Shown here one piece after another: positions 1,705 to 22,453 of a stretch of DNA of 64,000 nucleotides. The notes under the pieces were generated by a model that worked only from the letters and a program-made list of their open reading frames with translations, ran no database searches and was not told the DNA's origin. The translations under genes were made by a program, and so were the position numbers. Position 1 is the stretch's first letter. Each line of letters opens with the position of its first letter. The stretch is taken from NCBI GenBank assembly GCA_046350795.1, contig JAXLZT010000002.1, forward strand, positions 24,293 to 88,292, given 5' to 3'. The DNA is from Minisyncoccota bacterium (lineage in GTDB: Bacteria; Patescibacteriota; Minisyncoccia; Phycocordibacterales; CALRHW01).

Positions 1705-3441
1705 ATGTCTCAAACAGAAAAAGAGCTACACGCTCAAATCGCGGATTTACAATCCGAGATCAAAAAATTAAAGAACCGCAAAAAATACGGACTCGTTTGG
1801 GAAGACAAACCCGAGGATGTCGTTTTGCAGTGCCAAGAGAACATTCCAATTCTCAAAGAAGTTAAAACCAGAAAATTAGTTTCTGATAATTCGCTCCCGA
1901 CCAACATCTTGATCGAAGGAGACAATTACCACTCTCTTTCTGTTTTGAACTATACCCATCGCGGCGCAGTCGATGTTATTTACGCTGATCCGCCATACAA
2001 TACTGGATCGACTGACTGGCGATACAACAACGATTACGTCGATAAGACCGATAGCTTTCGGCACAGCAAGTGGATCTCTTTTATGGAAAAGAGATTGCGC
2101 CTTGCAAAAAATCTCCTGAAAGAAGACGGGATTATTTGCGTTACGATTGACGATTACGAAGTCTCAAGACTTATTCTTTTGATGGAAGAGATTTTCGGTG
2201 AGTTTAACCACCTTGGAACTGTACCAATCAGAAACAATCCAGCTGGACGTTCAACGACGAAAGGAATATCGATTACTCACGAATATGCAGTCTTTTTTGG
2301 AAAAACAGATAAGGCATTTGTATCACGTTTGGACCGTAATCAGTCGCAGCGAGATCGATATGATGAAGCCGACGACAAAGGCACTTTTGAGTGGGTCAAT
2401 TTTCGCAAGCCAGGCAGTATGCGAGAAGAGTCACCTAAAATGTATTACCCGATTTTTGTAACTTCTCATTCTATCCGGCTTCCAAAATTAGTTTGGAATG
2501 AGGATGAGAGCGATTACAAATTATTAGAAAAGCCCAAAAAAGGAGAGGAAATAATTTACCCGATTGATGAGGATGGAAAACAAAGACGATGGCGCTGGGG
2601 TATTGAAAGGTTTGTAAAAGAGCAAGAGGATTTAATGCCTCGAATATCTAAGGGTAAACTCCACGTCTATGTAAAAGGCCGAATGAATGACGAAGGAGTG
2701 CTCCCAATGACATGGTGGGATAAAAAAGAGTATTCATCTACCGCGTACGGAACGAACTTACTCAAAGACATTTTTGCCGAACTTCAAGTATTTTCTTATC
2801 CAAAATCTCTATATGCCGTGATGGATAGCATCCGAGTTATGAGTGATAAGCGAGACGCTGTTATTCTTGATTTTTTTGCTGGATCTGGAACAACCGGTCA
2901 TGCAGCTTTGGAATTGAACAAACTAGATGGGGGTAAAAGAAAGTTCATACTTTGTACCAATAATGAAAACAAGATTTGTGAAGAAGTAACTTACGAAAGA
3001 ATTAAACGAGTCGCCAAGGGATATAAAAACAGAAAGGGAGAAAAAGTCGAAGGACTCGGCGGTAATTTATCTTATTTCAAAACTGACCTCGTCAGTGTTG
3101 ATAGACTGCGCCGTATTTCAGATGAGTCCAAAATCAAAGTTACGTACCAAGCTGGTGAGATGATTGCTCTGCGCGAGGATACTCTAAGCGAAATTGAGAG
3201 GAATGAGTGGTGGCAGATTTTTGAGGGCAATGGAAAACTGACGGCCATTTACTTCACAGAAAATAAAACAAAACTTAAAGAACTTCTAAAATTATTAGAG
3301 AAGAAAGATAAACCAGCGACGCTCTACATATTCGGCTGGGGTAAAAACGAATACAAGAACGATTATTCGACTCACAAGATCCGTGTCGAGGATATTCCTG
3401 AGCCAATTCTTGAAGTTTATAAAGAAATTAACCGCATATAA
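1705..3441 (+). CDS. mod: Type III restriction-modification system methyltransferase (Mod), N6-adenine/N4-cytosine class
   Basis: Catalytic DPPY motif (VIYADPPYNTGS), an AdoMet-binding FxGxG-like motif (DFFAGSGTTGHAA), and length typical of Mod. Confidence 0.85.
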   Translation: MSQTEKELHAQIADLQSEIKKLKNRKKYGLVWEDKPEDVVLQCQENIPILKEVKTRKLVSDNSLPTNILIEGDNYHSLSVLNYTHRGAVDVIYADPPYNTGSTDWRYNNDYVDKTDSFRHSKWISFMEKRLRLAKNLLKEDGIICVTIDDYEVSRLILLMEEIFGEFNHLGTVPIRNNPAGRSTTKGISITHEYAVFFGKTDKAFVSRLDRNQSQRDRYDEADDKGTFEWVNFRKPGSMREESPKMYYPIFVTSHSIRLPKLVWNEDESDYKLLEKPKKGEEIIYPIDEDGKQRRWRWGIERFVKEQEDLMPRISKGKLHVYVKGRMNDEGVLPMTWWDKKEYSSTAYGTNLLKDIFAELQVFSYPKSLYAVMDSIRVMSDKRDAVILDFFAGSGTTGHAALELNKLDGGKRKFILCTNNENKICEEVTYERIKRVAKGYKNRKGEKVEGLGGNLSYFKTDLVSVDRLRRISDESKIKVTYQAGEMIALREDTLSEIERNEWWQIFEGNGKLTAIYFTENKTKLKELLKLLEKKDKPATLYIFGWGKNEYKNDYSTHKIRVEDIPEPILEVYKEINRI

Positions 3442-3443
3442 TT

Positions 3444-5747
3444 ATGTTCGCGCTCAAACCATTTCAAGAAAATGCCATCTCTCAGCTCAAGGAAAAGTTC
3501 CTAACGCTTTGGAAACTTGGCGATCACAATCTCAACCTGACATTCAAATCACCTACTGGTTCCGGTAAGACCATTATGATGGCGCAGTTCCTTCGAGACA
3601 TCGTATCGGACCCGCGATTTCAAAATGCGGATGTTGGATTTCTTTGGATTACAAACTCCGACTCGCTTGCCATGCAGTCAAAGGATAAACTTTTTTCATA
3701 CTATGGCGGCGCTAGTGAAAACCCTCTGCTCGATCTTAACGATTTGAGCGATGGCTGTATTCCAAAGAGCGGGGTATTTTTTATAAACTGGCAGAAGCTC
3801 GTATCTCGTGCTCAGACGAACCGTAAACTTCGTACCGAGGGAGAACTAAATGTAACATTCGATCAATACCTAAACGCAACTCACGAAAAAGGCCGCGAAG
3901 TTATTTTGATTATCGACGAGGAGCATATTGCTTCATCGACCGTGCTGGCGAGCGATCTGATACAAAATGTCATCAAGCCGCGAATAATTATTGGTGTTTC
4001 CGCTACGCCTCAAACGAAAGGAGTAACCGTGGAAGTAGCGCGTACAGATGTGGTTCGGGAGGGACTCATCAAAGAGAAAACTGTTTTTCAAACCGAGGAA
4101 GATCTGCAAAGAAAAGAGTTCGCGGGAATGGACCAAGACGACATCCTATTGACCCTGGCCTTCGATAAACGCACGGAGCTTGCAGGATACTATAAAGCTC
4201 TCGGTATCGACATCAATCCGCTTATCCTCATTCAGCTCCCAAATGACGATAAGGCAACGAAAGGATCGACTGGTACGACTAAACAAGAGTTGATTATATC
4301 CTTCTTGAAATCAAAAGGTGTATTTGAGCACGAAATTGCCGTATGGCTCTCAGAAGACAAGATCAACCTGGACGATGTCGAGAAGAACAATTCGCCGATC
4401 TCTTTTTTGCTTTTCAAACAAGCGGCTGCGACCGGATGGGACTGCCCGCGTGCGAGCGTTCTGGTTATGTTTCGTGAGATCAAAAATCCAACATTTGCTA
4501 TTCAAACCGTGGGACGTATTCTCCGTATGCCGCTCGGTACACACTTTCCAAGACCAGAACTAAACCTTGGCTACCTATATACCAATTACAAGCGAAATGA
4601 AGTTATTACTGGTTATGCTCGATCTGCGGAAAATCGTCCTGCTATCTACGGAAGCTACCGAAAACAATCCGTTGAACCAATTATGATCGACTCTGTGTTT
4701 ATGAGCCGTACTGACTACAACGATCTTGGCGACAGTTTTCAAGATGTTTTCAAAAAGGTTGCTGATAAGTATTTTTCTATCACAGAAAAAGACAGTGAAA
4801 AGGCAATCCAGAAAAGTTTTGTAACAACCGGTTTCGACACTGAGTCTTCAGTCACAAATGGTCTTATTACAGGAGTAGAAATTGATGACTACGATAATTT
4901 CAAGCAGGAGCTTTTGTCGGAAGGAGGAAGCCACGAGCAAGAAATATCCCAGTATGATCTTGAGCGGCTCTATAACTTGCTTTGTTTCAACATTGTCGCA
5001 AAGCAGACTGACGAGAATAAAAAGTTTGCCCCTGAGCGTTCATGGGGAAAGCTGAAAACGGCGCTCAATGTATGGCTCCTCGGTCATTTGAACGCGTCGC
5101 GCTCCAAGGTCTACTCTATGATCGTGGGTGATCTTATAAAGTCCACAAGCGTACTCGCGCCTCTTATTGGTAAGGCGCTGGAAGCGTATCGTCCAATCCG
5201 CGAGCAGGAAGTAAACCGCAAGTCTGAACGCGCCAAGCGTACTGAAAAAATTGAAATCCCTCGCCAGAGTATTTTTTATACCGATCAGTACGAAGAGATG
5301 GACGTTAAAAAGTCTGCAATGGCTCCATTCTATATTGAGAAGGACTACAAGGGAGAGGATAATGAAAAAGAGTTCATCAAGTTCATGGAGGAGAGCAAGA
5401 GTGTTATCTGGTGGTACAAGAACGGCGATGCTGGCAGCGAGTTTTTCTCCATCTCGTATTTCAATCCCGACGAGAACAAGGAAAAACTCTTTTATCCCGA
5501 TTGGATCGTAAAGACGAAGGATAAAACCTGGATCATTGATACCAAGAAAGGTGCAACCGCAGAACTCGCTGACACGGCCTATAAAGCCGAAGCGCTCCAA
5601 GAATGGCTCAAAGGAAAGAAGGGGCTGGCAGGTGGAATTGCAGTGCAGGACGGACCGAATGGATGGAAGACAAACTCAAATACCAAATACTCTTACTCGC
5701 CAACATTTAAGGGCTGGGTATCTCTCGCAGACGAGTTGAAAAGTTAG
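3444..5747 (+). CDS. res: Type III restriction enzyme Res subunit (SF2 helicase-nuclease)
   Basis: Walker A motif SPTGSGKT, a DEAH-like box (IIDEEH), a start immediately after mod (coupled), and size consistent with Res. Confidence 0.8.
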   Translation: MFALKPFQENAISQLKEKFLTLWKLGDHNLNLTFKSPTGSGKTIMMAQFLRDIVSDPRFQNADVGFLWITNSDSLAMQSKDKLFSYYGGASENPLLDLNDLSDGCIPKSGVFFINWQKLVSRAQTNRKLRTEGELNVTFDQYLNATHEKGREVILIIDEEHIASSTVLASDLIQNVIKPRIIIGVSATPQTKGVTVEVARTDVVREGLIKEKTVFQTEEDLQRKEFAGMDQDDILLTLAFDKRTELAGYYKALGIDINPLILIQLPNDDKATKGSTGTTKQELIISFLKSKGVFEHEIAVWLSEDKINLDDVEKNNSPISFLLFKQAAATGWDCPRASVLVMFREIKNPTFAIQTVGRILRMPLGTHFPRPELNLGYLYTNYKRNEVITGYARSAENRPAIYGSYRKQSVEPIMIDSVFMSRTDYNDLGDSFQDVFKKVADKYFSITEKDSEKAIQKSFVTTGFDTESSVTNGLITGVEIDDYDNFKQELLSEGGSHEQEISQYDLERLYNLLCFNIVAKQTDENKKFAPERSWGKLKTALNVWLLGHLNASRSKVYSMIVGDLIKSTSVLAPLIGKALEAYRPIREQEVNRKSERAKRTEKIEIPRQSIFYTDQYEEMDVKKSAMAPFYIEKDYKGEDNEKEFIKFMEESKSVIWWYKNGDAGSEFFSISYFNPDENKEKLFYPDWIVKTKDKTWIIDTKKGATAELADTAYKAEALQEWLKGKKGLAGGIAVQDGPNGWKTNSNTKYSYSPTFKGWVSLADELKS

Positions 5748-5802: not shown

Positions 5803-7038
5803 TTAGTGGTCGTGCATCGGTATTGTCTCATTGCCGACAGGAGAAAAGATGTCCGGATTTGGATCGCCGGTAACATCAAGCACAGCCCATGCGCCTTTGT
5901 TCATACGAGCAAGTGCGTGATCGACAAGAAGATACTTGCCTGGCACGTTGAGCGTAAACTCCACAATACTTGAACCGCCTGGAAGTACGGCCGTCGTCTG
6001 TACATTTTTTTCTATTGTTCCTCCGATGTTTCCTTCGGGATAGACGGTGTCAAAAACCTCGCCAATGACATGGAAGGAGGAAATGAGATTGACACCGCCG
6101 TTGCCAACATAGATGCGGATCTTATCGCCGACTTTGGCATGCATACGCGGAGCACTCTCAATCTTACCGTTGAACGTGACGTACGTCGGATTTCCGTCAA
6201 GCAACTTATCAGAGTCAAAAGCCACCAATCCTTTTTTGCCGAGCTGACCGACGGTGTAGAGTTCGCCTTGAACGATATAAAACTCTTTATCTACTTTTGG
6301 CAGTCCTCCTTTAGGCTCAACGAGAATGAGTCCATACTGGCCGTGCGAGTTGTGGGTTGATACATTCGGCATGGCGCAGTGATAGATATACAGGCCTGGG
6401 TTGAGCGCTTTCCATCGGAAAGTTTTTGTTTCGCCTGGCAGAACTTCAGTAAGCGATGCGCCGCCGCCTTGACCCGTTACTGCGTGGAGATCAATGTTGT
6501 GATGGTGGAGACTGGTCGGATCATTCGTGAGCGAAAGTTCTATCGTATCTCCCTCGCGTACGCGGAGCATCGGTCCTGGCGTCTGACCGTTATACGTCCA
6601 GTAGTTGTAGTAAATGCCAGGGGCGATTTGCGAGATTACTTCCTTCACATCGAGGTGTATTCGCACAATGCCGTCAGCATCTGGTTTCTGTGGTTCGGCT
6701 GGAACAGCATTCGGATCTGCGCCAATATCTGCTACGCGCTCAAACTTATTTTCATACAAAAAGAAATCGAGGATTTTATTGAAAGGAATTGATGCTGGTA
6801 CGCCGCCTGGCGCGTGTGAATGCATAAATGCAGGCATGGCAAATGTCGGGGGATAGGTGCGGTTAGCCAGGAGTCCAGAGAAAAATGCGATCACGAAAAG
6901 ACAGAGTGGGATAAGAACCGCTTTATGCTTAAAAAAACGCATGAAGTGCGTGCGTTTCTGGAGCTGATACAAAATAAAAATGACTGCGATTGCGCCGATC
7001 ACTGCTGATAGCAATTCGAGAAGCATGTATGTAAGCAT
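5803..7038 (-). CDS. Membrane-anchored two-domain multicopper oxidase, copper nitrite reductase (NirK)-like
   Basis: HHHNIDLHAVTG resembles the NirK HNxDFHAATG type1/type2 Cu ligand motif. YIYHCAMPNVSTHNSHGQYG resembles the NirK HC...H...M segment with Gln in place of the axial Met. Two N-terminal TM helices. Confidence 0.6.
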   Translation of the reverse strand: MLTYMLLELLSAVIGAIAVIFILYQLQKRTHFMRFFKHKAVLIPLCLFVIAFFSGLLANRTYPPTFAMPAFMHSHAPGGVPASIPFNKILDFFLYENKFERVADIGADPNAVPAEPQKPDADGIVRIHLDVKEVISQIAPGIYYNYWTYNGQTPGPMLRVREGDTIELSLTNDPTSLHHHNIDLHAVTGQGGGASLTEVLPGETKTFRWKALNPGLYIYHCAMPNVSTHNSHGQYGLILVEPKGGLPKVDKEFYIVQGELYTVGQLGKKGLVAFDSDKLLDGNPTYVTFNGKIESAPRMHAKVGDKIRIYVGNGGVNLISSFHVIGEVFDTVYPEGNIGGTIEKNVQTTAVLPGGSSIVEFTLNVPGKYLLVDHALARMNKGAWAVLDVTGDPNPDIFSPVGNETIPMHDH

Positions 7039-7191: not shown

Positions 7192-7737
7192 ATGAATAAT
7201 TATGTAAAAAATTGGTTCAAGTTTGTGCTCGGGTTTATTGTGTGTTTGCTTATACGCCTCATTCAATTTCGTCCCCCGAATATCGAGCCGATTATGGCGA
7301 CTGCTCTGCCTTTCGGACGCGCCTACGGTAAAGGAGCGGGGTTTCTCTTTCCCTTTGCAAGCATGGTCCTCTTTGATCTTGTAGTCGGCAAAGTAGGCGT
7401 ATGGACCCTTATCACTGCGCTTGCCTACGGCTTTGTGGGGCTTGGCGCAGCCATCTATCTCCAGAGCAAGAAGAATACTGCCTGGAACTATGCAAAGTTT
7501 GCCATCATTTCGACGCTCTTTTTTGACGCCGTTACTGGCCTGACAGTCGGACCGCTATTCTTCGGCCAGTCACTTACTGCCGCTTTCTTCGGCCAGATCC
7601 CGTTTACCACTCTGCATCTCCTCGGCAACGTATCGTTTGCCCTCGTCCTTTCTCCTGCCCTTTATGCTTTTGTTATTGAAAATAAGCGCCTCGAATTGCC
7701 GAACCTTTTTATCAACCTTAATCCAAAACACGCATGA
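7192..7737 (+). CDS. Small polytopic membrane protein, possibly an ECF-type substrate-capture (S) component (cobalamin-related by context)
   Basis: 181 aa, about 5-6 hydrophobic helices and a GGAGG SD. Lies directly upstream of and overlapping nrdJ. Function is inferred from context only. Confidence 0.35.
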   Translation: MNNYVKNWFKFVLGFIVCLLIRLIQFRPPNIEPIMATALPFGRAYGKGAGFLFPFASMVLFDLVVGKVGVWTLITALAYGFVGLGAAIYLQSKKNTAWNYAKFAIISTLFFDAVTGLTVGPLFFGQSLTAAFFGQIPFTTLHLLGNVSFALVLSPALYAFVIENKRLELPNLFINLNPKHA

Positions 7738-10010
7738 AAAAATTACAAGAAGAAAAAATCGTCAGCATACAAAAGCGCGACGGCTCAATCGTTCCCTTTG
7801 ATGCTTCGCACATTACTCGCGCTATCTTCCGAGCGCTTTCGGCAACCGGCGAAGGCGGAGAACCGGAGGCCGAGCGCGTTACGGCCGCAGTAATGAAATC
7901 GCTTTTTGCGCTCAAGAAAGAACGCAAGGCTAAATACTCGGTCCCGCATGTGGAGACGATTCAGGATGTCGTCGAGAACGAACTCATTGCTGCGCGTTTC
8001 GGACAGACGGCAAAGGCATACATTCTTTACCGCAAAGAGCGTGAGCGTTCACGTAAAGAGCACGGGGCGGTTTCGGAGAAGGTAAAGAAGCTCGTCGCCG
8101 AGAGCAAGAAGTATTTTCGTAATCCGCTTGCCGAGTTCGTGTACTACCGCACGTATGCGAAATGGATCAGCGAGGAAGGTCGCCGCGAAACATGGATTGA
8201 AACGGTAGACCGTTACGTCAATTTTATGAAAGAAAATCTCGGCTCGGGCTTTACAGAAAAAGAATACGAAGAAGTGCGCGAGGCCATTCTCAAACAGGAA
8301 GCTATGCCGTCTATGCGCCTCCTTCAGTTCGCAGGCAAAGCAGCCCGCAAGCAGAACGTCTGCGCATATAACTGCTCCTTTATCGCTCCTCGCTCATTCC
8401 AGGATTTTGCCGAGATTATGTACATCTCCATGTGCGGTACGGGAGTCGGTTTTTCCGTTGAGAGCGAAAACGTCCAGGCATTGCCGCAGATCCAAAAGCA
8501 GACAGGCAAAAAGCTACCTACTCACATCATTGCTGACAGTCGTGAAGGATGGGCAGATGCGCTCGCGCTCGGCATGAAGACATGGTACGAAGGCAGTGAT
8601 ATTGATTTTGATTTTTCTCAAATACGTCCTGCCGGTTCGCGTCTCAAAACAATGGGTGGTAAGAGTTCTGGTCCCGACCCGCTTCGCTCTTTGCTTGGCT
8701 TTGCTCGAGAACGCATCCTGCGACGACAAGGTAGACGGCTCTCAAACATCGACGCGCACGACATTATCTGCAAGATCGGCGAGTGTGTAGTCGCTGGCGG
8801 AGTCCGCCGTTCAGCTATGATCTCGCTTTCCGATCTCGACGATGAAGCGCTCCGCGATGCCAAGAAAGGCCAATTTTATTTCACCGAAGGCCAGCGTATG
8901 CTTGCCAACAATTCTGCCGTCTATCTCGCAAAGCCGGATACCCAGACGTTCCTCGACGAGTGGACCGCGCTCGTAAAATCCGGTTCCGGCGAACGAGGCA
9001 TTTTCAACCGAGGCGGACTCGCGCAAACACTTCCGAAGCGCCGTCTCGATCAGTGGGAGGATGGGGCGTATCCCTCTTTCGGAACCAATCCGTGCGGCGA
9101 GATTATTCTTCAGTCAAAGCAATTCTGTAACCTTTCGGAAGTTGTTGTACGTGCAGACGACACAGAAGAAACGTTGCTCAAAAAAGTACGAGTGGCAGCA
9201 ATGCTTGGTACATACCAGTCCTCCCTTACATACTTCCCATACCTCTCCCGCGAGTGGAAGAAAAACTGCGAAGGTGAACGTCTACTCGGCGTTTCTATTA
9301 CCGGCCAGTGGGATTGCCCGCTCGTGCGTGATCCAGAGATGCTTGAAAAAATGAAAGCAGTGGCAATCGAGACGAACAAAAAGTTTGCCAAGCGCCTCTC
9401 TGTGAGCCAGTCTACCTGCATCACGTGCGTAAAACCTTCCGGCACTGTCTCCCAGACTGTGGACTGTGCTTCCGGCATGCATCCGCGCCATGCGCCGTAT
9501 TACATCCGCCGCATCCGCATTTCCGCCACTGATGCGCTTTTCAAAATGCTCAAAGATCAGGGAGTGCCGTACTTTCCCGAAGTCGGCCAGACTCTTGAAA
9601 ATGCCACTACATTCGTACTTGAGTTTCCGGTCAAAGCGCCGGACGGTGCGCTCTGCAAGGACGACGTTTCTGCACTTGGCCAGCTCGAACATTGGAAGAT
9701 CGTAAAGAAACACTACACCGAGCACAATCCGTCCGTTACGATTTCTGTCGGCGATGATGAATGGATCGCCGTTGCAAATTGGATCTATGAAAACTGGGAT
9801 CTTGTCGGCGGCCTCTCGTTCCTTCCTCGATCTAATCACGTCTATCAGCTTGCGCCGTACGAAACTATCAACAAGGAGCGCTACGAAGAACTCTTGAAGC
9901 ATGTTGAGAACCTCGATTTCTCGAAAATTGTTACGTACGAAACGGTCGATGAGACAGAAGTTAAAAACGAACTCGCATGTGTGGCAGGTGTGTGCGAGAT
10001 AGCACTTTAA
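7734..10010 (+). CDS. nrdJ: Class II (adenosylcobalamin-dependent) ribonucleotide reductase with N-terminal ATP-cone
   Basis: ATP-cone-like N-terminus (VSIQKRDGSIVPFDASHITRAI), the NPCGEI active-site motif, and 758 aa. Confidence 0.8.
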   Translation: MKKLQEEKIVSIQKRDGSIVPFDASHITRAIFRALSATGEGGEPEAERVTAAVMKSLFALKKERKAKYSVPHVETIQDVVENELIAARFGQTAKAYILYRKERERSRKEHGAVSEKVKKLVAESKKYFRNPLAEFVYYRTYAKWISEEGRRETWIETVDRYVNFMKENLGSGFTEKEYEEVREAILKQEAMPSMRLLQFAGKAARKQNVCAYNCSFIAPRSFQDFAEIMYISMCGTGVGFSVESENVQALPQIQKQTGKKLPTHIIADSREGWADALALGMKTWYEGSDIDFDFSQIRPAGSRLKTMGGKSSGPDPLRSLLGFARERILRRQGRRLSNIDAHDIICKIGECVVAGGVRRSAMISLSDLDDEALRDAKKGQFYFTEGQRMLANNSAVYLAKPDTQTFLDEWTALVKSGSGERGIFNRGGLAQTLPKRRLDQWEDGAYPSFGTNPCGEIILQSKQFCNLSEVVVRADDTEETLLKKVRVAAMLGTYQSSLTYFPYLSREWKKNCEGERLLGVSITGQWDCPLVRDPEMLEKMKAVAIETNKKFAKRLSVSQSTCITCVKPSGTVSQTVDCASGMHPRHAPYYIRRIRISATDALFKMLKDQGVPYFPEVGQTLENATTFVLEFPVKAPDGALCKDDVSALGQLEHWKIVKKHYTEHNPSVTISVGDDEWIAVANWIYENWDLVGGLSFLPRSNHVYQLAPYETINKERYEELLKHVENLDFSKIVTYETVDETEVKNELACVAGVCEIAL

Positions 10011-10014
10011 TCAT

Positions 10015-10536
10015 ATGCACCTTGCATTTACAGGCAATGGAAAAGGAAAAACAACAGCAGCCATCGGCAACGCAATCAGAGTTATTGGAGCTGATAAACG
10101 CGCTCTCATGGTTCAGTTCATTAAGGGACCCTGGATATCTGGAGAGGATAAGTGTGCAGAGCGACTGGGACCGGATTTTAGAATTGTGAAAACAGGCAAA
10201 GGGTTCGTCGGTATTCTTGGAGACACGCTTCCGATCGAAGAACACCGAAATGCTGCCGAAGAAGGACTACGGATTGCAAAGAAAGAGATCGCCAGTGGCA
10301 AGTGGCATCTCTTAATTCTCGACGAAGTTCACAATGCCATCTCACTTGGCCTGCTTTCAGAGACGGTCGTCAGTACGTTTTTGGATTATGCAAAGAGTAA
10401 GGTTGAACACATCATCACGACTGGCCGCGATGCACCAAAACAAATCATCGAACATGCCGATCTGGTAACGGAGATGAAAGAAATCAAGCATCCGTATCAG
10501 ACGGGGCGGTTCGCAGAGAAAGGGTTAGATTTTTAA
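10015..10536 (+). CDS. cobO: ATP:cob(I)alamin adenosyltransferase (CobO/CobA/BtuR family)
   Basis: P-loop TGNGKGKTTAAIG followed by VQFIKG, both diagnostic of CobA/BtuR. About 173 aa. Confidence 0.8.
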   Translation: MHLAFTGNGKGKTTAAIGNAIRVIGADKRALMVQFIKGPWISGEDKCAERLGPDFRIVKTGKGFVGILGDTLPIEEHRNAAEEGLRIAKKEIASGKWHLLILDEVHNAISLGLLSETVVSTFLDYAKSKVEHIITTGRDAPKQIIEHADLVTEMKEIKHPYQTGRFAEKGLDF

Positions 10537-10547
10537 CAGCATATTGT

Positions 10548-10685
10548 CCCGATCGGGGAAGCAGGGTGTAATTCCCTCACAGTGCCGCTACGGTGAAAGT
10601 CCGAATGCCGATCAGGATATAATCCCGAGCAGGAAGACGCGCATATATGCGACGGCAATACTCCTCTCGGCAGAGGAGTATTTTT
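10548..10685 (+). promoter_or_regulatory. Probable cobalamin (B12) riboswitch with terminator-type expression platform
   Basis: GGGAAGCAGGGTGTAATTCCC...CACAGTGCCGCTACGGTGAAAG matches the cobalamin aptamer core consensus (GGGAAG..GGTG.AA.TCC...C.G.CCCGC.AC.GT.AA). The hairpin TACTCCTCTCGGCAGAGGAGTA plus TTTTT (10659-10685) abuts the ATG at 10686. Confidence 0.6.
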
Positions 10686-11159
10686 ATGACTAACAATAAA
10701 AAGATATATAGTGGGTTCATTGTTCTGGCGATACTTATTTTCGCCATTCTGTACTTTGGAGCACATAGAACAGAAGCCCCGTCGGTTTCAGTACCGGCAG
10801 TTTCAGAACAGGTACAAAGTCCTGTTCCCGAACAAGCGGTTCCTCCGGCCAAGAACGAACCTGTTTCTGCGCCGGAAGTTTCGAGCGCATTCAATGTTAC
10901 GGCTGGCACGGCAACACTTTCTCTTTCAACAACCGGCGGATCGTTTCTTTCTATTCTTTCTGCGGCAAAGGAGCGCGGAGAGTTGGCTTTTTCCGGCAAG
11001 GATTATCCTGGACTCGGATTTTTTGTAACGGAGATCGGCTCTTTGAAAGAAGGAAATGGCAAGCATCTCATGTACTACATTAACGGCACAGAGGCGTCAG
11101 TCGGCGTTTCTCTCTATGTTCCAAAAGCTGGCGATACCGTCGTCTGGGAACTCAAATAA
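10686..11159 (+). CDS. Membrane-anchored DUF4430-like protein (transcobalamin/intrinsic-factor C-terminal beta-domain-like); start corrected to MTNNKK
   Basis: N-terminal TM helix and a Pro/Val-rich linker. The C-terminal segment ...GKHLMYYINGTEASVGVSLYVPKAGDTVVWEL resembles the DUF4430 signature (GWMYxVNG....Y.LKDGD.I.W). The track start at 10647 would overlap the riboswitch terminator. Confidence 0.5.
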   Translation: MTNNKKIYSGFIVLAILIFAILYFGAHRTEAPSVSVPAVSEQVQSPVPEQAVPPAKNEPVSAPEVSSAFNVTAGTATLSLSTTGGSFLSILSAAKERGELAFSGKDYPGLGFFVTEIGSLKEGNGKHLMYYINGTEASVGVSLYVPKAGDTVVWELK

Positions 11160-11161
11160 GT

Positions 11162-13117
11162 ATGAAAAAACTTCTTGCAGTATTGTTTCTTTTTTGCGCC
11201 GTTAGCTTCGGAGTTCGTGCTTATGCCGACGATGTTCCTCTGGACACTCCAGTAGATCCTGCTCCTATTGTGGATGAGACACCGCCAGCCGAAGATCCTC
11301 TCCCGCTTCCGACTGCGACACTCATTATCCGCTCGGGAGACACGGTGCTCTACAGTGGCAGTGTTTCCATTCCTGAAGAGAGTTCCGTAGAGATTGCCGA
11401 TAGTACCGGCGCTCTGCATTCTGTTTCCGCGCGGAGCGTACTTGCACTTCTTACGGCGCTTGATGCTTCCAATGATGACTTTGCCATAACCAATCTCACA
11501 TACTATCCTTCGTTTTCTTCTTTCTATCTCAAATGTCTAACACCGAGCGGAGAAATTGAACAATGCGATAACTGGCAGTATGCTGTCGGCAGTACGACCC
11601 CGTCTAGCAGTATTGATACCACTATTCTTTCTGGCGGCGAAACGGTGGGACTATACTTCGGTTCTCCGCACCGAGTTTCTTTGAGTGCGACTTCTGTTAC
11701 AAAAGGCGATGCGTTTATCGCCACCGCGCAGTCCTACAATTATGCGGACAACACCTGGAATGCGCTCTCTGGCGTTACAATCGGAGCAACTGTGCCAAAT
11801 CCAGCCGATCCCTGGACTCCGATAGTGGTAACAACACAAGCAGTAGACGCAGATGGTAAAGCGACGATCACGCTTTCGGATGCCGGAAGTTACTCGGTCG
11901 GCATCGCGGAGGATTTCTACTTTCCTTCGTATGCGCTCTCGGTTACTGAACCGGCTCCTGTCGGCGGCGGTGGAGGTAGCATACCAATCCCAACATTCAG
12001 CGTTGATCGCGCACTTTCATATCTCTACTCGGTCCAGAATGCAGACGGATCTTTTGGAAGTGATCTCTATACTGATTGGGCAGGTATTGCGTATGCGGCA
12101 AGCGGCGCATCACAAAATGCAAAAACTTCACTCATTGGATACCTTTCTTCTCACTCGCAAATAAGCTCTTTGCTTACAGATAATGAACGTAGAGCGGTAG
12201 CACTGCTTTCACTGGAGCAAAATCCATACACGTTTAGCGGGACTAATTATATCTCTCCGATAGTTTCTTCTTTCGATGGGACACAGTTCGGCGATCCGTC
12301 GCTTGTAAACGACGACATCTTTGCACTCTTGCCACTCTCTGCTTCTGGCTATTCCGCGAGCGACGACATGATTGCAAAAGACATTCAGTTTCTGGTAAGC
12401 AAACAGCGACCAGACGGATCATGGGAAGGCAGTGTTGATCTTACTGCATCTGTCATACAAGCACTCCAAGCATTCAACGCCGCACCTGACTCTGTCGCAA
12501 AGGCGATCGCATATTTGCAAACAAATCAGCAGAATGACGGCGGGTTTGGATCAGTGTATTCGACGAGCTGGGCAATGCAGGCCGGAGCGACATGGAGCAA
12601 GAACGGAAAAGCGGGAGCTGATTATCTCGCCTCATCGCAAGCGCCAGACGGTGCGGCCATTCCTGGGAGCGAAAGTACGAACAATCGAGTATGGGCGACG
12701 AGCTATGCCATCCCCGCAGTGCTCGGAAAATCTTGGAGCACTATCATGCATCCAGTTCCAAAGCCACAGGTTGTGTCAACCGGATCTTCTTCTGCCACAC
12801 AGACCGAAACAGCAAAGACGCCGGAAGTAATTATCCAAAAGACAGAGGAATCTAAACCCGAGGAACTGCCCGTAGAAGTAGCGCCAAAGGTAGCGGAAAC
12901 TCAGATCACTCTTACTCATACTGAAAAACCTAAAATAACGCCTCAAGTTGAAAACAATATGGAAGAAATTAAGACCGAGAAACCAGTAGAGTCGACTTCT
13001 CTTGCAGCCGCCGCAGGAGAAAGCAAGACCGACATACCAACTCCGGTAGTTGCCGTATCGCTCGCCGGAATTGGGGTCCTGGCGCTTATTGCGCGGAAGA
13101 TCTTTTTGAAGTTCTAA
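11162..13117 (+). CDS. Cell-surface protein with alpha/alpha-toroid (prenyltransferase/squalene-cyclase-like) repeats; candidate cobalamin-binding (transcobalamin N-domain-like) protein
   Basis: Signal peptide. Repeated QW-like motifs (SVQNADGSFGS, SKQRPDGSWEG, TNQQNDGGFGS, SSQAPDGAAIPG). Pro/Glu-rich stalk and a C-terminal TM anchor (VAVSLAGIGVLALIARKIFLKF). Translationally coupled to the DUF4430-like gene. Confidence 0.5.
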   Translation: MKKLLAVLFLFCAVSFGVRAYADDVPLDTPVDPAPIVDETPPAEDPLPLPTATLIIRSGDTVLYSGSVSIPEESSVEIADSTGALHSVSARSVLALLTALDASNDDFAITNLTYYPSFSSFYLKCLTPSGEIEQCDNWQYAVGSTTPSSSIDTTILSGGETVGLYFGSPHRVSLSATSVTKGDAFIATAQSYNYADNTWNALSGVTIGATVPNPADPWTPIVVTTQAVDADGKATITLSDAGSYSVGIAEDFYFPSYALSVTEPAPVGGGGGSIPIPTFSVDRALSYLYSVQNADGSFGSDLYTDWAGIAYAASGASQNAKTSLIGYLSSHSQISSLLTDNERRAVALLSLEQNPYTFSGTNYISPIVSSFDGTQFGDPSLVNDDIFALLPLSASGYSASDDMIAKDIQFLVSKQRPDGSWEGSVDLTASVIQALQAFNAAPDSVAKAIAYLQTNQQNDGGFGSVYSTSWAMQAGATWSKNGKAGADYLASSQAPDGAAIPGSESTNNRVWATSYAIPAVLGKSWSTIMHPVPKPQVVSTGSSSATQTETAKTPEVIIQKTEESKPEELPVEVAPKVAETQITLTHTEKPKITPQVENNMEEIKTEKPVESTSLAAAAGESKTDIPTPVVAVSLAGIGVLALIARKIFLKF

Positions 13118-13144
13118 TCGGTAAAGATTGCTTTTTTTGCCGCA

Positions 13145-13492
13145 TTGTTGCATACTTTTGAAACTAGTATGCCTACGAAAAAATCATCAAAGAAAATAAA
13201 ACAGCCTCTCCCACGAACTGCGTACCGACGCAACGCCGAAACCTATAAGATCCTCGCTAATCCGAAGCGCCTTGAGATCCTGAACCTTCTCCGTGAGCAG
13301 GAAATGTCAGTAGAAGAACTGGTAAAAACCCTCGGCATATCAAAGGCCAATGTTTCCCAGCATTTGGCGCTCCTTCGCCATGCTGATCTCGTGACAGTCC
13401 GCCGCGAGGGACTCAACGGGTACTACAACATCATCGATCCTCGCATCGTAGAGCCATGCCGCATTCTCCATCAGCTTGCTTTGGCTCGATAA
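13145..13492 (+). CDS. ArsR/SmtB family transcriptional regulator
   Basis: HTH segment LEILNLLREQEMSVEELVKTLGISKANVSQHLALLRHADLV. Confidence 0.7.
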   Translation: MLHTFETSMPTKKSSKKIKQPLPRTAYRRNAETYKILANPKRLEILNLLREQEMSVEELVKTLGISKANVSQHLALLRHADLVTVRREGLNGYYNIIDPRIVEPCRILHQLALAR

Positions 13493-13695
13493 AGGCGAAA
13501 ACCCTTGTATTTATTAGCCAACTGCCTGCCAATTAGCCACAAACGCGAACCGATTTAGGTCCGAAATGATCATTAGTGCGGTTCTGACTTCATCTAAGCC
13601 CCGCAGCCAATTTGAGCTAGGACGAGATGCGTATGGATCTCATGCGCTCGAAGTGCATCGTTTAGCAAATTTTGTAGAAGCGATACAATACAACT

Positions 13696-14073
13696 ATGTT
13701 GCATCAGATGAAATTACAACCAAATCCGTTTGAGAAAATAAAGAATGGAAGCAAGACTTTAGAGCTTCGTCTCAACGACGAGAAGCGGCAACTCATTAAG
13801 GTTGGCGACGAGATTGAATTTTCTCTTGCGACGGAACCTGAACAGAAGATGCTTGCAGTCGTCGAAGACTTGTATCATTTCCCGACATTCAAGGATCTCT
13901 GTTATTCATTTGAGCCTGCTGAGTATGGCAGTCTTGATAAGGAAGAGTATGTAGAGATGTATAAGTATTACTCAAAGGAAGATGAGACAAAGTACGGAGT
14001 CTTGGGTATACGCGTAAGGCCTCACAACGGTCCAGTAATTAAGATTTCCCACTACCGAGTTCCAACAAAATAA
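13696..14073 (+). CDS. ASCH (PUA-like) domain protein
   Basis: MKLQPNPFEKIKNGSKTLELRLNDEKR matches the ASCH N-terminal pattern. 125 aa. Confidence 0.5.
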   Translation: MLHQMKLQPNPFEKIKNGSKTLELRLNDEKRQLIKVGDEIEFSLATEPEQKMLAVVEDLYHFPTFKDLCYSFEPAEYGSLDKEEYVEMYKYYSKEDETKYGVLGIRVRPHNGPVIKISHYRVPTK

Positions 14074-18226: not shown

Positions 18227-21200
18227 ATGGGTGATTTTTCGACTAAAAAATTTTTTCTAAAAACAGTTTTCACACTGTTTGTCTTTTTATTTTTTACTTC
18301 ACAGGTGTATGCTGCCACTATTTATTCAAATAGTAGTACAGGAAATGATTCTACTGGTGATGGTACTAGTGGTTTACCATATCGTACATTTCACAAAGCA
18401 TATACCGTGGCGAGCGCTGGTGACACTATCAATCTCACCGGTACATTTACATGGACTGATGCATCTGAAACAGGTGACGCGTCTCCAGCTGGATATACAA
18501 TAGGAAAAAATCTTACTATTGTCGGACAGGGTGCAGATGAGACTATCGTGCAATCTGCCACAGCATCTACTACGGGTGATAGACGTGTGTTTACTGTGTC
18601 TGCCGGCATAGTTGCTAATTTTGATAAATTAAACATAAGACATGGTCGTGTGACGGGTTCTGTATATGGCGGTGGTATTTATAATAGCGGTACCACTACG
18701 GTGACAAATTCGGATATAAACAACAACTCTAGTCCATCATATGGTGGAGGCGGTGTTGCAAACTACGGCATTTTTACTATCGAAGATAGTTCTATACGAA
18801 ATAATACTGGATATTATGGTGGTGGAGGTATTAGAAATATGGATTTGCTGGCAGATCTTTTTATCACAAATACCACCATTACTGGAAATCAGCAGATGTC
18901 GAGCACTGGGTATACCGATGGAGGAGGTATAGATGCGAGATATGGAGATGTGACGCTCACAAACTCTGCGATTGTTTACAACTCAGCGTATGGCACGGGT
19001 GGACTTTGTATGTGTGATACCACCGGTACTTTGACGATAAAGAATACTATTATTGCCAACAACTTAAAAAAAGGCGGTGGCTCTGCATACGATTTTTATA
19101 AAAATAATGTAGGTAGTACTGTAACTGATAATGGAAAAAATATTGTTGGAAGTTCAAATGGTAGTTACACGTGGGTGGGCTCTGGTGATTGGACGGACAC
19201 TGATTTAAACGGAAGTTTTACACTATACAGTGTCGGTACTACTGGCTCCTTAAATATGGAATCTACATCAAGCACAAATGATGATCCAGATGGTACATAC
19301 AATCACGCTATTTTTGCAAGCTCTATTGCAATAGATAATGGAGCCACTGGTGCAAACGGTGCCACATCTACTGTACCCACACTAGATCAGCGTGGTGCTA
19401 CACGTAATAGCACTACAGATATTGGTCCTTTTGAATACAATGGGGGTGGTCTTTCTATATCAGCTCCCACCACCCAAGCATCTTCTGTAACTTTTAGTTC
19501 CGTTGAATACAACAGAATGACTGTGAGTTGGACAAATGGTAACGGCTCACGACGTGTAGCTTTTATGAAAGCAGCTAGTAGCGGTACGGCGTCACCAGTA
19601 GATGGTACATCATATGCCTCAAGCTCTGTGTTTGGAAGTGGTGATCAGATCGGCTCTTCAGGATGGTATGCGATATATGATGGACTTGGGTCTAGTGTGA
19701 CTGTTACAGGACTTACACAAGGTGTTACATATATAGTGCAAGTATTTGAATACAATGGAGTTTCTTCTGGTACAGCAGATTATCTTACTGATACAGCTAC
19801 AAACAATCCAAACACACAACAATCACATGCCGTTGTTACTTTGTATGTAAATAGTTCCACAGGAAATGATTCTACCGGCGATGGATCAAGTGGAAGTCCG
19901 TATCTCACTTTTCACAAAGGATATACTTCTGCTAGTGCAGGCGACACTATAAATCTTACAGGTACTTTTACATGGACTGATTCTGGAGAGACGGGTGACT
20001 CTGCCACTACGGGTTACACACTTTCAAAAGATTTAACTATTCAAGGCAATGGTGCAGATGACACTATACTTCAGTCTGCCACAGCATCTACTACTGGAGA
20101 CAGAAGAATATTTACTGTTTCATCTGGAGCTACCGTAACTATTGATGACATTATGTTGAGAAATGGTCGTGTGACAGGCTCTGTGTATGGAGGAGCTATT
20201 GATAACAGTGGAACACTTACTATTACTGATTCTGATATCAATAATAATTCCAGTCCTTCGTATGGCGGTGGAGGAATTGTAAATTACAGCACGCTTACTT
20301 TGGACAGAGTGTCTATGTGGAACAACACTGGATATTATGGTGGTGGTGCGATTAGAAATCTAGATGCCAACGGTGATATTTTTATTACAAACTCAACGCT
20401 TGCCTATAATCAACAAATGTCTAGTGGTGTATATACCAACGGTGGAGCTATAGACATGAGGTATGGTGATCTTACTTTGACAAATTCGGTAATAGCTTAC
20501 AACTCAGCGTATGGTGTCGGTGGACTTTGTATGTGTGATACCACAGGTACTTTGACGATAAAAAATAGCATAATAGCTAGCAATCTAAAAAAAGGCGGTG
20601 GCTCTGCATATGATTTTTATAAATCAAACGCAGGTAGCACTGTAACTGATAATGGAAAAAATATCGTCGGAAGTTCAAACAGTAGTTATACTTGGGTGGG
20701 CTCTGGTGATTGGACGGACACTGATTTAAATGGAACCTTTACACTATACAGTGTCGGTACCACAGGTTCTTTAAATCAGAGTAGTACGCTAGCTACAAAC
20801 AGTGCATTAAATAATACTTACACTCTTGCTATTACTTCGGCTAGTTCAATAGCAAAAGATAATGGAGCTACAGGAACAAACGGTACCATATCTGTACCTA
20901 CCACAGATCAGCGACAAGGCACTAGAAACGGTACTACCGATATAGGTGCATATGAGTATGGTGCAACTTTTGGAGATACTACTGTGCCCACCGTGTCTGT
21001 GACGGCTCCAAGCTCTGATGCAACAGTCTCTGGCGCTAGTGTTTCTTTTACAGCAGATGCTAGTGACGATGTGGCTGTGGCGGGAGTAAAATTTTATGTA
21101 AATGGAGTATTGCAGGGAAGCGAAGACACGACTTCTACATATGGTATTACATGGGACAGTACAGCGACTACTTCGGGTGCTTATACTCTAGTAGCCGTCG

Positions 21201-22453
21201 CTCGTGATAGTTCAAATAATTATGCTACTTCTACGAGTGTTTCTTTTAATGTGTTGAATACTGGACCAACACCCACATCTGTAGTAGCTACAGGATCTGA
21301 TAATGGAGCTACTATTACTTGGACTACTGCTGATGCAGCTTCATCACGTGTATATTTTGGTCCTACCACAAGCTATGGTTCTTCTACACCAGAGACAGAT
21401 ACATCACCACGTGTTACTAGTCACTCTGTTTCTGTTTCCGGTTTACCATCCTGTGCTTACTATCATTATTATGTTGAAAGTAAAAATACTGCTTTAGATA
21501 CTGCTACTAGTTCTGATTACACTTTTTCTACTACTGGTTGCACAAGTAGTGCGTCTATTACTGCCAGCGGAAATGGCACCATAGCTACGGCTTCTGGCGG
21601 TACTTTGACACAGGGGGATATTACACTTACTGTGCCTACTTCTTTTACCAATGCATCAAGCTCTGCTATTTTTCAAGCAAATCAACTCAACTCTACGACA
21701 TTCTTTTCTGGGATAACAAATCCAAGTGGTCTTAATGCTGTTGGAGATTCTGTTTTTCATCTTTCTGCTTTCATTGATGCTACCACTACCATCTCCTCTT
21801 TTTCTGCGCCTATTTCTGTAAGGCTTGCTTATACTTCTGCTGATGTTGAAGACATAGATGAAACAACTTTGTGGATATATAGATATGATGGTTCGTCTTG
21901 GTATGCACTTAATGATTGCTCTGTAGATACATCTGGCATGACCGTCACCTGTACTACTACAAATTTTTCTGATTTCGCACTCTTTGGTGAGGGGGTTGAT
22001 AGTAGTGGGGGATCCAATAGTGGTTTTTCTGCCAATAGCCAAGTTGTAAATCTGATCAATATGGGTAAGGTGCATGACGCGGTTTTAATTATTCAAAAAT
22101 ATCCATCTATATTAAACGATAAAAATGTTCTAGATTTTTTGAAAAAATATTTAGATAGTATTGCTCTAACACAAAATGTTGATTTATCTGGGCCGAATAT
22201 TTTGATAGAAAAAGATCTCTATCTTGGTTCAGAGGGTGAAGATGTAAAAAAATTGCAGACGTTTTTGATAGCACAAAATAAAGGTCCGATTTCAAAAGAA
22301 CTCGCTCGTGTGGGTGTTACTGGATATTTTGGTCAATACACAAAAAATGCTTTAGGTGAGTTTCAGAAAAGTGTTGGTATAGTGCCGTATTCTGGATATT
22401 TTGGTCCAAAGACCAGAGCTTTTGTCAGTGATTTAAAAAATACAAAAGAATAG
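18227..22453 (+). CDS. Giant secreted surface protein: two tandem ~500-aa right-handed beta-helix modules, FN3/Ig-like domains and a C-terminal peptidoglycan-binding domain
   Basis: Signal peptide. The 500-aa unit (YSNSSTGNDSTGDG...CMCDTTGTLTIKN...GSSNGSYTWVGSGDWTDTDLNG) appears twice. Gly-rich pectate-lyase/Pmp-like turns. The C-terminus (EDVKKLQTFLIAQNKG...GYFGQYTKNALGEFQKSVGIVPYSGYFGPKTRAFV) resembles PG_binding_1. Confidence 0.6.
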   Translation: MGDFSTKKFFLKTVFTLFVFLFFTSQVYAATIYSNSSTGNDSTGDGTSGLPYRTFHKAYTVASAGDTINLTGTFTWTDASETGDASPAGYTIGKNLTIVGQGADETIVQSATASTTGDRRVFTVSAGIVANFDKLNIRHGRVTGSVYGGGIYNSGTTTVTNSDINNNSSPSYGGGGVANYGIFTIEDSSIRNNTGYYGGGGIRNMDLLADLFITNTTITGNQQMSSTGYTDGGGIDARYGDVTLTNSAIVYNSAYGTGGLCMCDTTGTLTIKNTIIANNLKKGGGSAYDFYKNNVGSTVTDNGKNIVGSSNGSYTWVGSGDWTDTDLNGSFTLYSVGTTGSLNMESTSSTNDDPDGTYNHAIFASSIAIDNGATGANGATSTVPTLDQRGATRNSTTDIGPFEYNGGGLSISAPTTQASSVTFSSVEYNRMTVSWTNGNGSRRVAFMKAASSGTASPVDGTSYASSSVFGSGDQIGSSGWYAIYDGLGSSVTVTGLTQGVTYIVQVFEYNGVSSGTADYLTDTATNNPNTQQSHAVVTLYVNSSTGNDSTGDGSSGSPYLTFHKGYTSASAGDTINLTGTFTWTDSGETGDSATTGYTLSKDLTIQGNGADDTILQSATASTTGDRRIFTVSSGATVTIDDIMLRNGRVTGSVYGGAIDNSGTLTITDSDINNNSSPSYGGGGIVNYSTLTLDRVSMWNNTGYYGGGAIRNLDANGDIFITNSTLAYNQQMSSGVYTNGGAIDMRYGDLTLTNSVIAYNSAYGVGGLCMCDTTGTLTIKNSIIASNLKKGGGSAYDFYKSNAGSTVTDNGKNIVGSSNSSYTWVGSGDWTDTDLNGTFTLYSVGTTGSLNQSSTLATNSALNNTYTLAITSASSIAKDNGATGTNGTISVPTTDQRQGTRNGTTDIGAYEYGATFGDTTVPTVSVTAPSSDATVSGASVSFTADASDDVAVAGVKFYVNGVLQGSEDTTSTYGITWDSTATTSGAYTLVAVARDSSNNYATSTSVSFNVLNTGPTPTSVVATGSDNGATITWTTADAASSRVYFGPTTSYGSSTPETDTSPRVTSHSVSVSGLPSCAYYHYYVESKNTALDTATSSDYTFSTTGCTSSASITASGNGTIATASGGTLTQGDITLTVPTSFTNASSSAIFQANQLNSTTFFSGITNPSGLNAVGDSVFHLSAFIDATTTISSFSAPISVRLAYTSADVEDIDETTLWIYRYDGSSWYALNDCSVDTSGMTVTCTTTNFSDFALFGEGVDSSGGSNSGFSANSQVVNLINMGKVHDAVLIIQKYPSILNDKNVLDFLKKYLDSIALTQNVDLSGPNILIEKDLYLGSEGEDVKKLQTFLIAQNKGPISKELARVGVTGYFGQYTKNALGEFQKSVGIVPYSGYFGPKTRAFVSDLKNTKE

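Follow-up and report, generated by a model that had tools for sequence, protein, structure and literature searches.

A likely corrinoid-capture pair with transcobalamin-type domains in a probable B12 salvage island of a Candidatus Paceibacterota bacterium

Bacteria of the Candidate Phyla Radiation (CPR, Patescibacteria) have very small genomes and are generally held to be incapable of making most cofactors. To our knowledge, it is little documented how they obtain the vitamin B12 required by their class II ribonucleotide reductase and hence by DNA synthesis. The 64-kb stretch of DNA studied here (the window) comes from a Candidatus Paceibacterota (CPR) bacterium and carries two adjacent open reading frames, ORF A and ORF B, directly downstream of a B12 riboswitch and of genes for B12-related enzymes. 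Both lie at the coordinates and on the strand (+) given in an earlier note on this DNA, which had proposed that they form a split transcobalamin. We consider it likely that the pair captures corrinoids outside the cytoplasm, as one module of an island for B12 (corrinoid) salvage, with ORF B alone apparently containing both domain types of transcobalamin and ORF A being an additional module. The features of this locus are listed below, with residue numbers referring to the respective ORF.

7192-7737, + strand: DUF6580 / energy-coupling factor (ECF) S-component-like membrane protein, 181 aa (PF20221 38.5 bits, PF07155 26.2 bits)
7734-10010, + strand: NrdJ, class II adenosylcobalamin (AdoCbl)-dependent ribonucleotide reductase, 758 aa (TIGR02505 RTPR, E 5.8e-93; ATP-cone, RNR_Alpha and RNR-II_ins_dom domains)
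10015-10536, + strand: CobO/BtuR-type ATP:corrinoid adenosyltransferase (PF02572 173.6 bits; TIGR00708 cobA, E 1.8e-43)
10541-10618, + strand: AdoCbl-II (class II cobalamin) riboswitch aptamer (RF01689 57.2 bits)
10657-10685, + strand: expression platform, an 11-bp hairpin containing the Shine-Dalgarno (SD) sequence and then a U-run (sequence; minimum free energy (MFE) and centroid fold)
10686-11159, + strand: ORF A, 157 aa, with N-terminal membrane anchor, linker and C-terminal SLBB/DUF4430 domain (PF14478 43.1 bits)
11162-13117, + strand: ORF B, 651 aa, with signal peptide, SLBB domain, Ig-like domain, toroid, stalk and transmembrane (TM) helix
11162-11230, + strand: predicted signal peptide of ORF B, residues 1-23 (hydropathy scan; AYA/DD as the likely cleavage site)
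11303-11680, + strand: putative divergent N-terminal SLBB/DUF4430 domain of ORF B, residues 48-173 (AlphaFold2 (AF2) model, Pfam matches of orthologues)
11669-11947, + strand: Ig-like beta-sandwich spacer of ORF B, about residues 170-262 (all-beta segment of the AF2 model)
12002-12745, + strand: alpha6/alpha6 toroid of ORF B, residues 281-528, with 12 helices and four Q..DG motifs (AF2 model, motif search)
12746-13117, + strand: stalk (residues 529-622) and TM anchor (624-650) of ORF B with an RK..K tail (composition, hydropathy)
13145-13492, + strand: ArsR/SmtB-type regulator (NF033788, E 4.2e-25)

The stop codon of the DUF6580 gene overlaps the start of nrdJ, and a gap of 2 nt (TAA-GT-ATG) separates ORF A from ORF B, a spacing that makes translational coupling of the two plausible. 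No cob or cbi gene besides cobO is found among the annotated ORFs of the window. The G+C content of positions 8001-14000, which hold most of this B12 island, is 0.47-0.52, compared to mostly 0.32-0.45 in the remaining window.

ORF A starts with a hydrophobic helix at about residues 4-30 (hydropathy and TM scan), continues with a linker in which Pro, Ser, Val, and Glu are abundant, and ends in an SLBB/DUF4430 domain assigned to residues 63-157, where PF14478 (DUF4430) matches residues 87-156 well above the gathering score (43.1 versus 23.8 bits, E 5.9e-11). The match and the N-terminal helix together agree with the previous description of this protein as a DUF4430-like anchor protein. Vertebrate transcobalamins end in a domain of the DUF4430 type (PMC4350170), which is equivalent to the “transcobalamin-like” clade within the SLBB beta-grasp superfamily (PMC1796856). 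An exhaustive HMMER search with ORF A retrieved 1301 cluster representatives at E<=1e-3. Almost all among the best 150 measure 95-220 aa and carry the domain at their C-terminus, and the N-terminal helix is kept in position in 27 of 28 homologues of ORF A. Conservation within the family alignment is highest in the block Y.GLGFFVTEIG, followed by YYINGKEASVGVS. This block would correspond to the post-helix hairpin, the main ligand-contacting insert of Burroughs et al., and aligns with the LSGPYLTSVLG region of transcobalamin in a weak phmmer alignment to 8ixt (E 0.08).

ORF B has a signal-like hydrophobic helix at residues 1-23 and a C-terminal TM helix at residues 624-650 in the hydropathy scan, the latter coinciding with the anchor that the earlier note had seen there. 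By their signal and anchor helices, both proteins of the pair are thus predicted to be membrane-tethered and extracytoplasmic, as had been proposed. The long stalk described as Pro/Glu-rich is present at residues 529-622, but four amino acids and not just two are enriched in it (E 16%, T 14%, P 11%, K 11%). Among 120 ORF B homologues, 100 have the C-terminal TM helix, and the median stalk is ~80 aa long. An AF2 run with a 119-sequence alignment gave a model of ORF B with a predicted local distance difference test (pLDDT) score of 93 and a predicted template modeling score (pTM) of 0.60, compared to a pLDDT of only 37.6 for a single-sequence run. The model contains an N-terminal domain, an all-beta segment and a toroid (residues 258-505 in model numbering, to which 23 is added to obtain ORF B residues). 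For the Ig-like part at about residues 170-262, many homologues have PF16403 matches, and Foldseek aligns the segment to proteins that combine macroglobulin (MG) domains with a thioester-containing domain (TED).

The N-terminal domain of ORF B is modeled with a pLDDT >90 and consists of strands, one helix (70-80 in model numbering) and then a hairpin (84-92/97-105), a beta-grasp topology like that of the transcobalamin-like SLBB clade. Several lines of evidence lead us to conclude that this is a divergent SLBB domain, a reading from sequence comparisons and the predicted structure. PF14478 matches 18 of 31 orthologous N-domains (best E 4.2e-6), with no other family recurring, and reaches 29.2 bits, above gathering, at the equivalent position (residues 89-163) of P0093, a homologue 45% identical to ORF B. 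In homologues of 900 aa, the ORF B-type N-domain is duplicated and scores 40-50 bits with PF14478. An hhalign comparison of the ORF B N-domain with the ORF A family gave a weak score (E 0.006-0.02) that extends over 71 co-linear columns; no match was obtained when ORF A was compared by BLASTP with the first 273 residues of ORF B. A profile of the N-domain searched against the PDB matched only designed Kelch-repeat proteins, which we judged spurious. The conservation of this domain is very strong: R, H, K, C, C, W, and Q residues are invariant, among them His H86 and the Cys pair C125/C135, and the domain carries a CDNWQY motif.

The toroid agrees with the earlier description of a 651-aa alpha/alpha-toroid protein with QW-type repeats: it is formed by 12 helices and carries four Q..DG(S/G)(W/F) motifs at residues 292, 415, 456, and 493. 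By sequence it is nearest to the repeats of squalene-hopene cyclases (PF13243 SQHop_cyclase_C, 48.1 bits, above the cut-off; 2sqc, E 1e-8), and PF01122 (Cobalamin_bind) stays below its cut-off of 25 with 20.4 bits. In the Foldseek ranking against the PDB, chains of complement and alpha-2-macroglobulin come first at 11-15% identity because these proteins combine Ig-like domains with a TED toroid. ORF B could therefore be imagined as a terpene cyclase or prenyltransferase or as a thioester surface protein of the TED/alpha-2-macroglobulin type, with a B12 link that is merely regulatory. We find this scarcely credible. The QW-type repeats are a structural feature common to the superfamily and not diagnostic of enzyme activity. 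The plain terpene-cyclase-like enzyme with an intact active site that the earlier note had named as the opposing outcome is not what we see, since ORF B has no DxDD motif (D.DD regular expression). It also forms a single 12-helix barrel of 250 aa, as opposed to the two-domain cavity of class II cyclases, and scores far below the NCBIfam cut-offs for cyclases (TIGR01787, 53.5 versus 322.7 bits; TIGR01507, 43.3 versus 431). The thioester candidate was rejected as well: a C[GL]EQ motif is absent and the toroid is free of cysteines, the only cysteines of the mature protein being those of the N-domain, and complement and alpha-2-macroglobulin were dropped as a functional lead because of this missing motif. 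Neither type of protein fits a predicted extracytoplasmic location combined with conserved partners that are all B12-related. Public names such as “terpene cyclase/mutase family protein” or [quoted passage not shown] are thus misleading for these proteins from metagenome-assembled genomes (MAGs), which are almost certainly not terpene enzymes.

The earlier note had placed the pair under a B12 riboswitch, and the corresponding aptamer indeed lies just outside the range that the note covered, at positions 10541-10618. It matches the AdoCbl-II family RF01689 over its full length (model positions 1-81 of 81; 57.2 bits versus a gathering score of 36.5; E 2.3e-11 for the whole window) and is the only Rfam match at gathering score within the 64 kb. 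In class II cobalamin riboswitches, a kissing loop with the SD hairpin is stabilized by the ligand and mediates regulation. The elements of such a switch can be recognized downstream of the aptamer: an 11-bp hairpin at positions 10657-10682 with the loop CGGC (10668-10671) is found in the sequence and the MFE and centroid fold, the Shine-Dalgarno sequence GAGGAG (10673-10678) forms part of its 3' arm, and a short U-run separates the hairpin from the AUG of ORF A at position 10686. Furthermore, the GGC of the hairpin loop is complementary to a GCC in the second hairpin loop of the aptamer according to the Rfam alignment. By analogy, the ribosome-binding site of ORF A would be regulated by a kissing loop. 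A simple terminator scan did not list the platform hairpin, and we therefore call it SD-sequestering and possibly also an attenuator. The full-length aptamer, the SD-containing hairpin and the loop complementarity are all as in other class II cobalamin riboswitches; what differs is the position within an operon, between cobO and the capture genes. Since the riboswitch lies downstream of nrdJ and cobO, it would gate just the two capture genes.

The strongest evidence of this analysis comes from comparative genomics. In a scan of species-representative genomes we found relatives of ORF B in 326 species-level genomes, and the loci of the best 80 were examined with flanks of just 2.5 kb, so that all counts of neighboring genes are minima. 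In 75 of 77 evaluable loci, the gene directly preceding the ORF B relative is a small ORF A-type gene in the same orientation. A same-strand nrdJ is located upstream in 45 of the 80 loci, the order nrdJ, DUF6580 gene and pair occurs in 13 of the 80, and cobO in 3 of the 80. A riboswitch of the B12 clan that immediately precedes the small gene reaches the gathering score in 23 of 40 scanned loci, and the families upstream of the pair are RF01689, RF01482, and RF00174. Among ten loci that were scanned again at a permissive E-value, three have a match just below the threshold. All four loci that had been fetched earlier carry a B12 riboswitch, two of them above and two below the threshold. It seems very likely that the pair has a corrinoid-related function because different riboswitch classes have been recruited independently and because the linkage to an AdoCbl-dependent enzyme persists.

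Most of these best 80 relatives are labeled Paceibacterota, Nomurabacteria, or “Saccharibacteria”, with five “Gammaproteobacteria” and several recorded just as “bacterium”; none of the 80 comes from a cultured or named non-CPR host. The records of L029, L031, L032, L036, L043, and many other loci are titled “uncultured Gammaproteobacteria bacterium” or “Candidatus Saccharibacteria bacterium”. These labels are probably wrong; they appear implausible because the loci are nearly the same as those of Paceibacterota (and Nomurabacteria) MAGs. Logan contigs contain exact matches to the window. The closest other species, with 76% identity (L010; Candidatus Paceibacterota DALYCO010000001.1, positions 1-2432), has neither riboswitch nor cobO, and its pair begins 4 nt after the nrdJ stop codon. 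It looks like the segment with cobO and the riboswitch was recently gained or lost between this locus and that of the window. Where the toroid protein is only 45-78% identical, NrdJ is 79-94% and ArsR 79-96% identical, and this high conservation of the island genes may reflect strong constraint or lateral spread.

The same neighborhoods bear on the question of the ligand. Lactobacillus sakei encodes separate alpha-like and beta-like proteins, Lsa1839 and Lsa1840, in the ECF operon lsa1836-1840, for which haem has been argued as the substrate (bioRxiv 10.1101/864751, 2019). That an ECF operon with transcobalamin-like proteins shows a haem-uptake phenotype, accompanied by a haem docking model, suggests that the pair in the window could bind haem or another tetrapyrrole or cofactor, and Burroughs et al. 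considered that some archaeal members may scavenge another metabolite (PMC1796856). However, most scanned loci have a B12 riboswitch, from one of three Rfam families, ahead of the pair, the dominant neighbors of the pair are the AdoCbl-dependent NrdJ, CobO, and a CbrT-like S component, and the L. sakei evidence for the protein pair itself consists of docking only. The L. sakei operon further differs in having a full ECF module (A, A', T, S) and no described link to a riboswitch or NrdJ, and we liken the two systems by description, not by sequence. We therefore regard haem or a comparable ligand as highly improbable for the pair.

Given a corrinoid as the ligand, it has to be asked how the two proteins share the transcobalamin domains. 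The proposal of a split transcobalamin holds in that both domain types, predicted membrane tethering, the riboswitch and a conserved gene pair are all found, but not in its division of labor, because ORF B has an SLBB domain of its own. From sequence and the predicted structure we conclude that ORF B already contains both domain types of transcobalamin in the order beta-Ig-alpha (SLBB-Ig-toroid), and that ORF A appears to be an additional, paralogous SLBB protein. Among the 120 ORF B homologues, 111 have the architecture SLBB-toroid and eight SLBB-SLBB-toroid, and in none of them is an ORF A-type domain fused to the toroid. Proteins of 900 aa with both PF13243 and PF14478 had been candidates for Rosetta-stone fusions of ORF A with the toroid, and they were rejected when domain mapping showed a duplicated ORF B-type N-domain. 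The homologues with duplicated SLBB domains are 800-1057 aa long (P0046, P0056, P0075, P0081, P0085, P0114, P0115, P0009), and one locus, L004, combines an SLBB-SLBB-toroid protein with a separate small SLBB gene, amounting to three SLBB modules per system.

A strict heterodimer, in which the SLBB domain of ORF A clamps B12 against the toroid of ORF B and the SLBB-like domain of ORF B has a structural or other role, is an unlikely arrangement in our view, albeit one with several arguments behind it. The alpha and beta proteolytic fragments of intrinsic factor reassemble on cobalamin. In the pair studied here, the domain of ORF A is canonical and high-scoring (43 bits) compared to the divergent copy in ORF B, the two genes are adjacent in nearly all evaluable loci and 2 nt apart in the window, and the L. 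sakei operon likewise encodes its alpha-like and beta-like proteins separately. Against these points stand the strong conservation of the ORF B N-domain and its duplication in 8 of the 120 homologues, which argue that it is a working ligand module and not a relic, as well as the lack of any fusion between an ORF A-type domain and a toroid among these homologues. We favor an ORF B that would hold a complete pair of transcobalamin domains, with ORF A as an additional module.

The genes upstream of the riboswitch suggest what becomes of the captured ligand. The 181-aa protein encoded at 7192-7737 shares 100% identity with an NCBI entry named [quoted passage not shown]. Its relatives are often annotated as “ECF transporter S component”, and PF07155 is the family of ECF riboflavin S components. 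While the single sequence has no match in the PDB or NCBIfam, a profile of 33 DUF6580 sequences has one sole PDB match, 6FNP_A, at a weak E of 0.021 over 136 of 181 positions. Chain A of 6FNP is CbrT, the B12-specific S component of ECF-CbrT (PMC5997447). From this, we infer that the protein is a candidate corrinoid permease and a distant relative of CbrT. We put the permease role forward tentatively, because this similarity is weak and no EcfA or EcfT gene is found in the window, the sole ABC ATPase of which is a soluble protein with two nucleotide-binding domains (30310-31848). By its family assignment, CobO would convert imported cobalamin to AdoCbl, and NrdJ is the likely consumer of the scavenged B12. 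Downstream of the pair, an ArsR gene is found in 18 of the 80 loci with 79-96% amino-acid identity; this ArsR/SmtB-type regulator is a conserved neighbor that may be linked to the system, and SLBB-ArsR fusion proteins are described from Methanosarcina (Burroughs et al., PMC1796856).

The absence of an ATP-driven importer from the window and the weak permease assignment would also suit a pair that binds B12 for sequestration or storage at the surface, or in competition with neighboring or host cells, without delivery to a transporter. CPR bacteria live attached to other cells, and up to three SLBB modules per system would fit a high-capacity sink. However, repression by cobalamin through a riboswitch fits uptake, and synteny with NrdJ, CobO, and an S component fits supply to a cytoplasmic enzyme. 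Such a sink is thus distinctly improbable.

We therefore return to capture for import as the probable function. The steps of this process, namely corrinoid binding, the order of hand-off, the identity of the permease and regulation by a kissing loop, are read from homology and gene context, and each of them is less certain than the overall function. Under B12 limitation, the riboswitch would be open and ORF A and ORF B would be made. ORF B would be secreted and held off the membrane by its C-terminal helix and ~95-aa acidic stalk, with its SLBB domain and toroid most likely sandwiching the corrinoid like the two domains of transcobalamin. ORF A would most likely serve as an extra corrinoid-binding module that either accepts the ligand from ORF B or pairs with the toroid. 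The ligand might then be passed to the DUF6580 S-component-like permease for import, and inside the cell CobO would adenosylate cobalamin for NrdJ. Once cobalamin is replete, the class II riboswitch would stabilize the SD-burying hairpin and expression of the capture genes would fall, while nrdJ and cobO upstream of the switch would remain on.

Besides the haem case of L. sakei, several observations weigh against this interpretation. The phmmer match of ORF A to the C-domain of transcobalamin-2 (8ixt, residues 312-421) is weak, and profiles of the ORF A family, for the whole protein as well as for the domain only, have no significant match in the PDB and do not retrieve transcobalamin. The N-domain of ORF B has no Pfam match of its own, so that its connection to DUF4430 runs via orthologues and the weak hhalign score. 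With a pTM of only 0.60, the domain arrangement of ORF B, and hence the clamp, is not established by the model. On the side of transport, the similarity of the DUF6580 protein to CbrT is weak and the window lacks the energizing EcfA and EcfT genes. No recognizable riboswitch is present in 14 of the 40 scanned loci, and 7 of the 10 loci re-scanned permissively also have none. Finally, in the literature searched we came across no biochemical test of a bacterial family member and no report that one binds corrinoids.

Beyond simple capture, the pair could be part of a multi-module extracellular B12 relay of Patescibacteria, in which up to three SLBB modules pass the corrinoid stepwise toward the membrane. 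This is a doubtful extension of the capture function. The modules would be one or two SLBB domains on the stalked toroid protein and one on the short-tethered ORF A, and the final recipient would be a lone CbrT-like S component that operates without an ECF ATPase module. The Isd system of Gram-positive bacteria, where haem is handed along NEAT domains, would be comparable. A distance-ordered relay was considered from the tether lengths of homologues (ORF B stalk, ~80 aa; ORF A linker, ~50 aa) and set aside, as this comparison is too weak to support it. If true, a relay would make the system a widespread riboswitch-gated apparatus for cofactor piracy by episymbiotic CPR bacteria and the first bacterial transcobalamin homologue with a defined mechanism.

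The idea of a split or surface-exposed B12-capture system is not new: the architecture and function were predicted in 2007, and an alpha/beta pair was described in 2019. Burroughs, Balaji, Iyer & Aravind 2007 (Biol Direct 2:4; PMC1796856) described surface proteins that join SLBB domains to an alpha/alpha toroid in either order and have Ig domains in addition. In their description, the operon encodes another SLBB paralogue and the hosts lack B12 synthesis, and they predicted B12 scavenging as well as a bacterial origin of animal transcobalamin. ORF B and ORF A fit this description point by point, including the predicted signal or anchor on both proteins, the SLBB domain with post-helix hairpin, the toroid and the second SLBB paralogue in the operon. 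However, their survey was made before there were CPR genomes and assigned the clade mostly to Gram-positive bacteria. In our system, anchoring is by a C-terminal TM helix that follows an acidic stalk and not by LPXTG, and the neighbors are NrdJ, a solitary S-component-like gene and CobO instead of CbiO/CbiQ. Their paper makes no connection to B12 riboswitches (“riboswitch” has 0 occurrences in PMC1796856). We found no papers on this system in Patescibacteria in the literature searched. Three traits are specific to the lineage: anchoring by a stalk with a C-terminal TM helix, linkage to NrdJ and a lone S component, and a class II riboswitch that lies inside the operon.

Compared to vertebrate transcobalamin, intrinsic factor and haptocorrin (PF01122 plus PF14478; 2bb6, 2pmv, 4kkj), the same two domain types are present, but their order is beta-Ig-alpha as opposed to alpha-beta in one soluble chain. 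The system of the window has an extra, separate beta-type protein and membrane-tethered chains. PF01122 stays below threshold with a toroid identity of 16-18%, and ORF A profiles fail to retrieve transcobalamin from the PDB. The closest counterpart of the gene neighborhood is the experimentally proven nrdJ-cbrS-cbrT-pduO cluster of L. delbrueckii (Santos et al. 2018, eLife; PMC5997447; PDB 6FNP). It follows the same logic of an AdoCbl-dependent reductase, an adenosyltransferase and a small S component, but differs from the island in a PduO-type instead of a CobO-type adenosyltransferase, in that no EcfA/A'/T is found in the window, and in the weak S-component similarity (E 0.021).

The locus and hundreds of similar ones point to a dedicated, conserved, and riboswitch-gated surface capture system built from the folds of animal transcobalamin, and these CPR proteins are relevant to the proposal that animal B12 carriers originated in bacteria. 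Because they are compact, highly conserved and covered by a confident structural model, they are good first candidates for a biochemical test.

Several other features of the window and of related loci were noted. Upstream of the island, an N6_N4_Mtase DNA methylase followed by a ResIII-type helicase/nuclease (1705-5747, + strand) looks like a type III restriction-modification pair, and in the loci L001 and L005 defense genes (restriction-modification, TIR, CD-NTase) adjoin the capture pair. A multicopper-oxidase-like protein (Cu-oxidase_3, Cu-oxidase_2) is encoded divergently from the island at 5803-7038 (- strand). No tRNA or tmRNA genes were found in the 64 kb (1-64000). Three regions, 18227-22453 (+ strand), 35850-38519 (- strand), and 23538-25391 (+ strand), encode further large proteins with a predicted surface location, namely one of 1408 aa with Big_7 and a peptidoglycan-binding domain and one of 889 aa with MG2 (macroglobulin) and dockerin domains, as well as two tandem M14 carboxypeptidases. 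The window also holds, at 49618-56316 (+ strand), an ORF of 2232 aa with SpvB and RHS-repeat domains that is polymorphic-toxin or Tc-toxin-like in appearance. At 58380-59510 (- strand), this bacterial genome encodes a homologue of deoxyhypusine synthase (PF01916, 326.9 bits).

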